Part shown: positions 1 to 4,616 of the stretch, piece by piece | Position numbering within the stretch: the stretch's first letter is position 1 | Layout: each line of letters begins with the position of its first letter | IMG/VR virus record: IMGVR_UViG_2531839667_000017 | Span: 1-41,654 of that record | Source: a virus | Taxonomy: Duplodnaviria > Heunggongvirae > Uroviricota > Caudoviricetes | Strand: one strand, 5' to 3' | DNA length: 41,654 nucleotides | Made by a program: the position numbers and the translations under genes | The notes under the pieces: model-generated | Databases searched by the model: none | The model's input: the letters and a program-made list of their open reading frames with translations, nothing else | Told to the model about the DNA's origin: nothing

Positions 1-3000
1 TTATTCTCTGGATGCGATTAATACACCGTTTTTGCGAACTTCAAAACCATAACCCGTGTAACTTGTACCTCCCGGGTTATTACCACTTCCCGGATAGCTA
101 TACGCTATTCCGTTAAAGATAATGGGCGGAATAATGATTTGACGGTCAAAGTTATGATCATCGCTGATGGTGACTGTAACCGTCCCGTTTGGTGTTTCCG
201 TGTTACCCCACGTACCAGCCTGTTTCGGGAATGATTTGGATACAGCTTTAACGAAGTCACCTCTGACCTGAGTCGCCTCCAGCATGCCCTTAATCGTACA
301 GTTTTCATTTACCGTGACATTGTTGAGCGTCCCGGCGTTCGCATTCACACTGCCACTGATATCGGCATTTTTAGCGGTCAGCTTTCCGTCTGATGTCAGG
401 GAAAATGCCGGAGGATTGCCGCCACTGGTAATGGTGGGAGCCGTCAGATATTTCAGGAACACTTCATTCATGAATATCTGATCTCCCTGACCAACAAACA
501 TCGGCGTTTCATTCCCGTTTGCCGGGTCAATAAACGCGATACGGTTAGCGGCAACCAGAAACTGGCTCAGTTTGCCTTCCTCCGAGTCCTCCATGCTGAG
601 GCCAATACCCGCGACATAATGTTTGCCGTCTTTGGTCTGCTCAATTTTGACAGCCCACATGGCATTCCACTTATCGTTGGCGTCCTTCCACTCTTTCGAA
701 AACTCCTCCAGTTTGCTGGCGTTATCCTCCGTCAGCTCGACTTTTTCCAGCAGTTCCTTGCCGAGATGGGATTCGGTTATCTGGCCTTTGAAAAAATCCA
801 GGTAACCTTCCGCATCATCGCTCGCCTGACCGACAGCCTCCACGAATGCCGATTTGCCAACGGTGTTCACACTGCGGATATAAAAGTAATAATCATGGCC
901 CGGTTTGATATTGATACTGGCGGCTATCCAGTACAGCGCCATGCCAAGATAGCGCGCGCTGGTTTCAACCTGCCTGATATCCGCAATCCGCTTTTCCGAG
1001 AACCAGAACTCAAACTGTACCGTCGGATCATAAACCGCAAGATGCGGCGTGGCGGTTATCTGAAAATAGCCCGGCGTCAGCTCAATCTGTGACGGCGCTG
1101 CCGGTGCGGCAATCCTGAACGATACCGACGCCGGATCGCCCTGCTGTCCCCACGCATTTACCGCCCGGACAGTCAGCGTGTAACTCCCCAGCGCCAGTTG
1201 TGTGAAGCGGTATGTGGTTTCCGCCGTCCGGGCTGTGCTGACCAGCCGCTCACTGCCGTCATCCGCTGCCACGGTCAGGCGAAGCATGAAACTCACGCCC
1301 TTCACCACCTTCGGCGTATCCCAGCGGGCCAGTACCTGATACTCCCCGCTGTCTGCGGTGACTTCGGCAGTCAGGTGCTGCACTGCTGGCGGCGTGACAC
1401 CATTCACCGTGCCGCTCTGGTCGCCGTCAAAGTGCGCCCCGTTATCCACGATAGCCTCTTTTTCAGGCACATGCTGCACGGCGGTGATGGCATACGTGCC
1501 GTCGTCGTTCTCACGGATACTCACGCAGCGGAACAGGCGCTGGCGCAGCGTCGGCAGCTTCAGCCCCCACACGCTGTATCCGGCAACGCCGTCAGGAACA
1601 CGGCTCACTTTTACCTTCACGCCGTCGGTGACGGACTGGACCTCCACGCTGACCGGATTGCCACTTCCGTCAACCTGGCTTATCAGCGTGGTACCGGAGG
1701 ATGGCAGCGTGATTTCACGGTCGAGCGTCAGCGTCCGGGTCTGGCTGTTCACCGCCAGTACGCGCCCGCCGGTGCTGATACCGGCATAGTCATCATCGCA
1801 GATTTCAATGACGTCTCCCGGCACATGGCGAAGCCCTTCTGCACCCACGCTGAAGTCCACGGTCTGCGTTTCCAGCAGCTCCGTTTTAATCAGCCACAGC
1901 CCGGCGCGGTGTGCCTGCCCCCGACAGGTACAGCCAAAGGCATCCATCTTCGTGACGTTACGACCGTAACGGGCAATGGCCTGCGTGTCCTCCACAAGCT
2001 CTGTTGCCGTCTCCCAGCCGTTGTTCGGGTCAATCCAGTTCACCTCAACGGCATTATGGCGGTCCTTCAGGGCGCTGAAGCTGTAGCGGAACGGTGCGCC
2101 ATCATCCGGCATCACCACATTACTGCGGTTATAGGTCCACACCTTATCCGATGGCCGGTCCTGCACGAACGTCAGCGTCTGCCCGTTCCATACCGGCATA
2201 CAGCGCATCGCCGAGCAGAAATCACTGAGCACATCCCACGCCTTGCGCTGTGTGGTCAGGTACGCATTACAGGTGATGCGCGGCTCCGTGCCGCCAGAGC
2301 CATCCGGTACCGACTGGTCGCAGTACTGGCCGATGACATACAGCGCCCATTTATCCACATCCGCCGCACCAAGACGTTTCCCCATGCCGTAGCGCGGGTG
2401 GGTCAGCATGTCCCACAGACACCAGGCCATGTTGTCGCTGTACGCTGGCTTAAACGTTCCGTCCCAGATACCGCTGTATTGCCGCGTCTGCGGGTTATAG
2501 TTCGACGGCACCTGCAGAATGCGCCCGCGAAGATGATAATTACGGCTCACCTGCTGGCTGCCGAACTGCTCCGAGTCCACCTGTACACCGACCAGTGCCG
2601 TGTTCGGGTAGCCCTGTTTCACATCGATGATTTCGGTATACGAGGACCAGATTGTTTTGTTCTGCAGCTGGTCTGTGGTGCTGTCCGGTGTCAGCCTGCG
2701 CATCCTGATATTGAACGGTCGCGGCGGCAGGTTATCCACCACCACCGAGGCCAGATACTGTGAGGTGGTTTTGCCCTTAATGGTGATGTCTTTTTCCGTC
2801 ACCCAGCCACCATTACGTTGTATCTGAACCAGCAGGCGGACTTCCGACGGATTCCGGTCCCCCTTTGAAGTGGTTTCCACCAGTGCCTGCACACCGAAGG
2901 TCAGGCGCAGACGGTCGATGTTTGCCGACGTGATGGTCCGGGTGATCGGCGTGTCATATTTCACTTCTGTACCGAGCACCGTCTCGGAGCCGGAGGATTC

Positions 3001-3243
3001 AAATCCCTCCGGCGGTGTCTGCTCCTGCTCACCGGCCCGGAACACCACCGTGACGCCGGATATATTGGTATTCCCCTCACTGTCCAGCACCGGCGTACTA
3101 TTCAGCAGCACGCTTTTTAATCCATCCACCGGACCTTCAACCGGCCCTTCGCTGATGGCATCAATCACACTCAGCAGTTGCGTGGACTTCAGGTTGTCCT
3201 TCGCTTCGCGCGGGGTATGCCCCTTACTGCTTCCTTTGCCCAT
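1..3243 (-). CDS. J: tail tip / host specificity protein J (central fibre)
   Basis: 1080-aa ORF with ATG at 3241-3243 and TAA at 1-3; N-terminal ~950 aa collinear with lambda J as recalled ([24 protein letters not shown]...); C-terminal ~130 aa diverges. Confidence 0.9.
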
Positions 3244-3303: not shown

Positions 3304-3975
3304 TCAGCGGCCAATCACCACAACCTGACCACCGTCCCCTTCGTCTGCCGTGCTGATCTCCTGAGAAACCACGCGTGACCCCACGCGCATTTCACCGTAC
3401 AGAACCGGCAGAACATTGCCCTGGGCAACCATGTTATCCAGTGAGGAGAAATAGGTGTTTTGTTTGCCGTTATCCGTTGTCTGTGTACGGGGAGTTCTGG
3501 CTTTCGGTGCCAGCATTTGCGCCACACCACCGAGCACCATACTGGCACCGAGAGAAAACAGGATGCCGGTCATACCACCGGCCCCAATGGCTGCCCCCCA
3601 TGCTGCAAGGGTGGCTCCGGCGGTAAAGAATGATCCGGCAATGGCGGCAGCCCCCAGGACAATCTGGAATACGCCACCTGACTTGGCCCCGGCGACTCTG
3701 GGAACAATATGAATCACAGCGCCATCAGGCAGAGTATCATGTAACTGCGCCGTTAACCCGGACGTGCTGACGTCCCGCCCGGCAATCCGTACCTGATACC
3801 AACCGTCGCTCAGTTTCTGACGAAACGCCGGAAGCTGTGTGGCCAGCGCCCGGATGGCTTCAGCACCCGTTTTCACACGAAGGTCGATGCGGCGGCCAAA
3901 TCGTTGTAAATCCCCGTAAAGGCAGATGCGTGCCATGCCCGGTGACGCCAGAGGGAGTGTGTGCGTCGCTGCCAT
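3304..3975 (-). CDS. I: tail assembly protein I
   Basis: 223 aa, MAATHTLPLASPGMARICLYGDLQRF... matches lambda I; position between K and J. Confidence 0.88.
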   Translation of the reverse strand: MAATHTLPLASPGMARICLYGDLQRFGRRIDLRVKTGAEAIRALATQLPAFRQKLSDGWYQVRIAGRDVSTSGLTAQLHDTLPDGAVIHIVPRVAGAKSGGVFQIVLGAAAIAGSFFTAGATLAAWGAAIGAGGMTGILFSLGASMVLGGVAQMLAPKARTPRTQTTDNGKQNTYFSSLDNMVAQGNVLPVLYGEMRVGSRVVSQEISTADEGDGGQVVVIGR

Positions 3976-4616
3976 TTGTCGGTATACCTCTCTCGTTTGC
4001 TCAGTTGTTCAGGAATATGGTGCAGCAGCTCGCCGTCACCACAGTAAATGGCGGCATGATTCGGCACCGATGAACCAAAGCAGCACAGCAGCACATCGCC
4101 CGGCTGCGCCGCTGACAACGGCACCTGATACAGCCCCGTTGCCTCCAGATTATCCAGATAGAGATTCTGACCGTGACGCCACCAGTCATCCTCCCGCGTA
4201 AAATCCGGCATCTCAATCCCCGCCAGATGGTAAGCGTCCCGGAACAGCGTGTAACAGTCCGTCACCCCGTGCTCAAAGCGCCGCCCGGTGAGATGCGGCA
4301 CACAGCGGAACTTGTGAATCGCCCCCCGGCAGACCAGCCACCACGGCAAATCACTCTGCACCTGCAGCCGCCGGTCGGCCTCACTCAGCCAGGGCAGACC
4401 ACCGGGATGACTGTGGACCAGCGCCACAATCTCACCCTGCATCTCTGCCTGCAGCCAGTCCTCCGGCGACATCCGGAAATAATCCTCCGGCTCACCGGAG
4501 ATATTCACGCAGGGAAAATATCTTTCCCCCTCCGGCGTTCTCACCACGAAGCCGCACGACTCCGCTGGCGCACATCGCCGGGCGTGCGCCAGAATCGCTG
4601 ATTCTGTCTCTGTCAT
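3873..4616 (-). CDS. K: tail assembly protein K (MPN/JAMM plus NlpC/P60-like domains)
   Basis: 247-aa ORF with HSHP...D JAMM-like motif and C-terminal Cys/His peptidase-like region; ATG at 4614-4616 is 5 nt downstream of the L stop; 3' end overlaps I by 103 nt as in lambda. Confidence 0.85.
   Translation of the reverse strand: MTETESAILAHARRCAPAESCGFVVRTPEGERYFPCVNISGEPEDYFRMSPEDWLQAEMQGEIVALVHSHPGGLPWLSEADRRLQVQSDLPWWLVCRGAIHKFRCVPHLTGRRFEHGVTDCYTLFRDAYHLAGIEMPDFTREDDWWRHGQNLYLDNLEATGLYQVPLSAAQPGDVLLCCFGSSVPNHAAIYCGDGELLHHIPEQLSKRERYTDKWQRRTHSLWRHRAWHASAFTGIYNDLAAASTFV

Follow-up and report, generated by a model that had tools for sequence, protein, structure and literature searches.

An E. 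coli 3003 prophage J gene with the common phage 434-type specificity module, most likely cut short at a contig boundary

A J gene lies at the left edge of the window, by which we mean the whole 41,654-nucleotide stretch of DNA that was analysed. Its product as recorded is shorter than lambda J and unlike it at the C-terminus, and a first-pass annotation of the sequence had read this as a distinct, shorter domain, acquired by a mosaic swap, for a receptor other than LamB. The locus raises two questions: which specificity module the gene carries, and whether an end at codon 1080 belongs to that module or to the record.

The J gene and its neighbourhood

The J ORF that had been annotated here is present on the minus strand, with 1080 codons and TAA at window bases 1-3, and both peptide strings quoted for it occur in the translation. 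The features on which the assignment rests are as follows.

1..3243, minus strand: J (tip attachment / central tail fibre protein), 434-type; 1080 aa as recorded, without the last 57 codons of full-length relatives
328..711 (residues 845-972), minus strand: Phage_Tail_Tip domain (Pfam), central straight fibre, lambda-like
3304..3975, minus strand: tail assembly protein I homologue (PF06805, Lambda_tail_I)
3873..4616, minus strand: tail tip protein K homologue with JAB and NlpC/P60 domains

We identified window 1-3243 as the J gene because its product gives the full gpJ series of Pfam matches (FNIII-A_GpJ, Phage-tail_3, Ig_J, Ig_J_second, Phage_Tail_Tip and Ig_GpJ_C) and because homologues of I, K, L, M and H lie upstream. 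All six families scored above their respective cut-offs and keep the lambda order, and gene order together with the Pfam matches of the upstream genes places J at the close of the tail-tip cluster H-M-L-K-I-J. The tail and head genes listed over 10 kb on the upstream side of J, from C to I, encode proteins of ordinary length that match the Pfam families expected of them, ORFs run on uninterrupted through the terminase region, and the lambdoid prophage looks intact in other respects. By homology to lambda gpJ, a trimer of J would comprise a hub at the tail tip, two FNIII/Ig layers, a helical shaft, a fibre of beta-prism type and, distally, the Ig-like receptor-binding domain; the lambda-like residues 1 to ~973 of the window protein would supply the hub, both FNIII/Ig domains and the central fibre.

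We also noted a 521-aa ORF antisense to J (window 1198-2763, plus strand). Since lambda J has a comparable antisense ORF of 564 aa, the one in the window is most likely a by-product of codon usage and not a gene.

Departure from lambda J

We compared the window protein with lambda gpJ (NP_040600.1, 1132 aa), for which solved structures are available (8IYK, 8XCJ and others). The alignment gave 91% identity overall, distributed along the window protein as follows.

Residues 1-500: 97.6% identity to lambda J
Residues 501-900: 95.2%
Residues 901-970: 91.4%
Residues 971-1000: 63%
Residues 1001-1040: 47.5%
Residues 1041-1080: 27.5%

The protein is thus ~97% identical to lambda J until about residue 973 and about 38-40% identical beyond it, with dense differences beginning at about residue 974-985. 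The earlier description of a J that is collinear with lambda J and then diverges was right in its pattern but not in its extents, since the collinear part runs to ~973 residues instead of 950 and the divergent part covers ~100 residues instead of 130. Its estimate of a protein about 50 aa shorter than lambda J agrees with our comparison (1080 versus 1132 aa, a difference of 52 aa). The two features that make up the divergent end are these.

244..324 (residues about 974-1000), minus strand: transition zone and left edge of the exchanged specificity module, where identity to lambda falls from >90% to about 63%
4..243 (residues 1001-1080), minus strand: N-terminal half of the Ig-like receptor-binding domain (Ig_GpJ_C), 434/E2348-69 type

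The transition zone falls inside the 'specificity region 960-1132' of PMC6646904. In that study J residues 960-1132 were found to act as an exchangeable evolutionary module, whose lineages are defined by indels near positions 1012, 1048-1049, 1077-1078 and 1107 (Maddamsetti et al. 2018, PMC6646904). The window protein has both the module boundary, at about 974-985, and indels of the lineage type, namely one of 2 aa beside lambda position 1012 and one of 6 aa a few residues beyond 1048-1049. The full-length J of phage 434 has further indels a few residues from lambda 1077-1078 and 1107.

Despite this divergence, Ig_GpJ_C was matched in the window protein at 48.8 bits against a cut-off of 26.2. 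Because the score lies above the cut-off, we conclude that the divergent end is a homologue of the lambda receptor-binding domain, belonging to the same Ig_GpJ_C family, and no unrelated domain. Lambda gpJ and the window J are alike in family, in architecture and in the Ig-like fold family of the receptor-binding domain; they differ in the specificity module, which is about 35-40% identical and carries indels, and lambda itself binds LamB.

The divergent end is the phage 434 allele

At the DNA level the whole window gene is 94-95% identical to the J gene of phage 434 and to many other lambdoid J genes, including those of mEp460, cdtI, Ayreon, ev207, the ECOR PhiR phages and lambda h434 imm21. 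When the last 150 aa were used as a TBLASTN query, 72 phage records were returned at an identity of at least 90%, including 434, cdtI and phages converting for Stx1a and Stx2c. The 434 protein (UMO75286.1, 1137 aa), a central tail fibre representing the h434 host-range allele, is 96% identical to the window J overall, 91-93% over residues 971-1080 and 91% over residues 1001-1080, and phage 434 shares the domain order and the upstream gene neighbourhood (H-M-L-K-I-J) of the window. Over residues 985-1080 identity is 91-93% with 434 J but only 38-40% with lambda J. Seven of the 80 recorded domain residues are substituted between the window and 434 (S1004A, Q1008K, A1009V, N1019D, S1049D, Y1050D and S1061R, window residue first), and three of the seven, at residues 1008, 1009 and 1050, are only a few residues away from two of the lambda indel hot spots, 1012 and 1048-1049.

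A still closer relative is the J of a prophage in E. coli O127:H6 E2348/69 (WP_000515449.1, 1137 aa). It is 100% identical to the window J over residues 971-1080, the last 110 recorded, and the final 91 nt of coding DNA ahead of the apparent stop are also identical; residues 501-900 are more divergent (92.8%). The E2348/69 and 434 proteins differ from each other at 10 of 137 domain residues.

On the strength of the 91-93% identity to 434 J and the 100% identity to E2348/69 J, we assign the divergent end of the window J to the classical phage 434 (h434) / E2348-69-prophage allele, which is known and very common. The protein cluster to which the window J belongs at 90% identity comprises 4,993 members, and 2,004 out of 5,426 complete E. 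coli genomes contain the last 97 nt of J. The mosaic swap of the C-terminal specificity region that had been proposed is borne out, the non-lambda allele being of phage 434 type, and the check proposed with it, an alignment of the C-terminus with the J proteins of phages of known receptor, gave the 91-93% match to 434 J. That lambdoid phages exchange the J specificity module is textbook knowledge, and geneticists have worked with h434 since the 1960s. For a known allele present in roughly one in three complete E. coli genomes, the biological import of the swap is small.

None of the solved structures in the PDB copy that was searched is of the 434-type domain itself. The best solved match to this domain was 'A8 gpJ 713' (PDB 9WCA/9WCB), which covers the whole domain (E = 5e-20) and represents a third receptor-binding allele of J that has clearly diverged from the 434 type; the match to the lambda gpJ structure was weaker (E = 4e-14). 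An alignment of the full-length 434-type domain with the solved domain of lambda gpJ (residues 1002-1131) runs from end to end.

Predicted receptor

When lambda J is replaced by the 434 gene the phage binds OmpC, the receptor of 434, and specificity is set by the C-terminal part of J (PMC11101478, PMC3509688). Because the distal module of the window allele is of the 434 type, at 91-93% identity, its expected receptor would be OmpC rather than LamB. The earlier proposal of a non-LamB receptor thus appears reasonable for a 434-type allele, given the reported use of OmpC by 434 J (PMC11101478, PMC3509688); the mosaic swap and the non-LamB receptor are both sound readings, but already known.

The retained Pfam family and an alignment to lambda with few gaps might instead be taken to mean that the C-terminus is lambda-like after all and that adsorption depends on LamB. 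We regard this as extremely improbable, given that residues 1001-1080 are 37.5% identical to lambda J compared with 91% to 434 J, that its indels coincide with or adjoin the lambda hot spots 1012 and 1048-1049, by which separate J lineages are defined (PMC6646904), and that 434 J shifts lambda from LamB to OmpC (PMC11101478, PMC3509688).

By homology, the trimeric domain at the fibre tip would dock on a trimeric outer-membrane porin; the bottom loops of the domain would enter the porin, and binding would spread the three domains and open the tip, as loop insertion, domain spreading and tip opening have been described in PMC11101478. Fine specificity, for example for OmpC variants, could differ from that of 434 J because three of the recorded differences lie near lambda 1012 and 1048-1049. 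Similarly, the 10 differences from 434 among 137 domain residues, several of them near known specificity hot spots, mean that the E2348/69-type allele could be tuned to another OmpC variant or porin than 434 J. Neither the Gifsy-1 paper nor the receptor-prediction preprint treats the 434 J allele.

The laboratory hybrid lambda h434 imm21, which has been sequenced (PMC9119081; OM418627.1), carries its lambda-to-434 crossover within J, at nt 2115-2133 (about codon 706-711). Downstream of the crossover the hybrid has 5.8 kb of 434 sequence with one difference, covering the lom-like, stf, tfa and type III effector genes. From this position of the crossover, the h434 determinant consists of the J codons from about 706 on plus the downstream DNA. 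The crossover fits a determinant in distal J, and does not distinguish the contribution of J from that of the 434 side fibre genes.

The recorded end at codon 1080

The 434 and E2348/69 proteins run 57 residues past the last codon in the window, and full-length members of the 90% cluster likewise have 1137 aa, 5 aa more than lambda J. Beyond E1080 the 434 and E2348/69 proteins read TKGAIPGSYSAVIDMPSGGG...GISIR (in a longer form, TKGAIPGSYSAVIDMPSGGGSV...KKAASGISIR), and an intact J would read ACTAAAGGGGCC... past codon 1080, with its stop at codon 1138. Residue E1080 of the window protein corresponds to lambda A1072, and the absent part to lambda 1073-1132. In terms of the Ig_GpJ_C profile, the window J covers positions 1-72 of 135, compared with 1-134 for 434 J and 1-135 for lambda J. 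As recorded, the window J therefore lacks a complete receptor-binding domain, being 57 residues short of its 1137-aa relatives, a shortfall that reflects the end of the record.

By exact-sequence look-up the 1080-aa protein was found on one contig only, AFAF02000007.1 of GCA_000194665.2, which belongs to a draft assembly of E. coli 3003 and encodes the protein as EII84002.1, 'fibronectin type III protein'. Base 1 of the window is base 4 of this contig, which leaves 3 nt between the J gene and the contig end. The first-pass annotation could not have taken the contig end into account, as the apparent stop codon is the very point at which the window begins.

1..3, minus strand: apparent stop TAA, opening a non-J tail of 6 nt (TAACTT) that closes the contig

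The contig closes with ...CCAGAGAA TAA CTT, of which the final CTT is outside the window. In 434 and E2348/69 the bases ACT AAA stand in place of TAACTT, and the frame continues. We rejected a nonsense mutation as the origin of the stop: a change from ACT to TAA takes three base changes, so that the stop is a junction or junk. The junction ATCGCATCCAGAGAA/TAACTT, in short GAGAA/TAACTT, was absent from 5,426 complete E. coli genomes, though 2,004 of these hold the preceding 91 nt. A 21-nt sequence across the junction had no match among GTDB species representatives, IMG/VR and JGI metagenomes, while the wild-type junction was present in GTDB species representatives.

One contig of 1350 nt binned in a Collinsella sp. 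metagenome-assembled genome (JAGZNZ010000056.1) has the exact 434-type E. coli J junction; it is almost certainly a mis-binned fragment of a coliphage or of E. coli.

A stop in frame, the deposition of EII84002.1 as a complete protein of 1080 aa, and last ~100 residues only about 38-40% identical to lambda J could together suggest a naturally shorter, new kind of non-lambda receptor-binding domain, directed at some other outer-membrane receptor. We consider this very improbable. The divergent region is 100% identical to the matching part of a 1137-aa protein, the Pfam domain is matched only at the first 72 of its 135 positions, no other sequence in the collections searched ends at this point, and the stop is 3 nt from the contig end. 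A length of 1080 aa is no natural feature of the 434-type receptor-binding domain, and the idea of a distinct, shorter domain finds no support: the domain is in the same Ig_GpJ_C family as that of lambda, the allele is known and very common, and its full-length relatives have 1137 aa. If the truncation were real, a domain without 57 of its about 137 residues very probably could not fold or bind.

Assembly artefact or real disruption

The recorded protein has 1080 aa and falls short of 1137 because only 6 nt of contig are left beyond codon 1080 and these, TAACTT, happen to supply a TAA. With moderate confidence, we favour as the whole explanation a 434-type J module in an ORF that is cut by the record end, most likely as an artefact. 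In particular, the end at 1080 aa is probably an assembly break or a low-quality contig end, and the real gene is probably of full length. E. coli genomes carry homologues of J at 3 places in the median and at as many as 15; since J is a multicopy sequence in E. coli, of the kind at which draft assemblies break, a contig break at J is unsurprising. Partial proteins of 964 or 971 aa occur in the same cluster, where four of the six listed names are labelled partial. The uniqueness of the junction to the E. coli 3003 assembly, among the collections searched, also favours an artefact.

Two observations argue in the opposite direction. The six terminal bases differ from the expected continuation ACTAAA, whereas a break induced purely by a repeat would normally end in genuine J sequence. 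In addition, the prophage already holds one insertion of the IS21 family, in the early-left region.

33224-35139: IS21-family insertion sequence, just upstream of the RecT-family gene
33271-34053, minus strand: IstB, 260 aa
34050-35072, minus strand: IstA, 340 aa
35125/35198-36108, plus strand: RecT-family gene

The terminal inverted repeats of this element are GTGATCCAC/GTGGATCAC, and the element may separate recT from its promoter.

It is accordingly conceivable, but in our view unlikely, that the 434-type J is really cut after codon 1080 by inserted or rearranged DNA starting with TAACTT, for example an IS element. The contig's last 6 nt are unlike every J sequence examined, and the three changes needed for ACT to become TAA indicate a junction and no point mutation; the IS21-family element at about 33224-35139 shows that this prophage has received such an insertion before, and IS elements are frequent end points of contigs in draft assemblies. 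Weighing against a disruption, the putative foreign DNA amounts to just 6 nt, too few to identify anything, and this tail does not match the ends of the window's IS21-family copy. Nor was the junction found anywhere else in the collections searched, and from C to I the genes are ordinary in length and Pfam content, with uninterrupted ORFs through the terminase region. The last 7 nt of the contig, ATAACTT, are what we take to be the start of a loxP arm, and the 454 Titanium paired-end linker presumably contains loxP arms. The tail could then be a remnant of the linker, although a match of 6-7 nt may be due to chance.

The two origins of the end differ in their consequences for the phage. A real disruption would remove the distal half of the receptor-binding domain and leave particles unable to adsorb through J. 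We give only a minor chance to the outcome in which the truncation is real, the distal half of the domain is lost and the J-defective particles are non-adsorbing or depend wholly on side fibres. Under the artefact that we favour, EII84002.1, although deposited as complete, is most likely a contig-end truncation, and windows that start at a stop codon can hide such cases. Any prediction of receptor or host range for this prophage should be based on the full-length relatives of 1137 aa, and a call of a defective prophage would need a read check first.

Downstream cargo and the rest of the prophage

In the E2348/69 prophage J is followed by a terminator-like hairpin and then by a gene of the Ail/Lom family, a side fibre gene (437 aa) and an assembly chaperone gene (89 aa). 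Phage 434 and the E2348/69 prophage have the same series behind their 434-type J (lom-like, 437-aa side fibre and 89-aa chaperone genes), and in both of them genes for type III secretion effectors (NleB/NleC/NleH, Cif) lie beyond the chaperone gene. Any counterparts of the downstream lom-like, stf and tfa genes of 434, or of such effector genes, would fall beyond the end of the window's contig in E. coli 3003.

At the other end of the window we identified an integrase and a host gene.

39166-40236, plus strand: lambda-type integrase with an Arm-DNA-binding domain
40371-41654: pectinesterase-like host gene, after the integrase

The pectinesterase-like gene looks like ybhC, in which case the prophage would sit between gal and bio, in the attachment site used by lambda.
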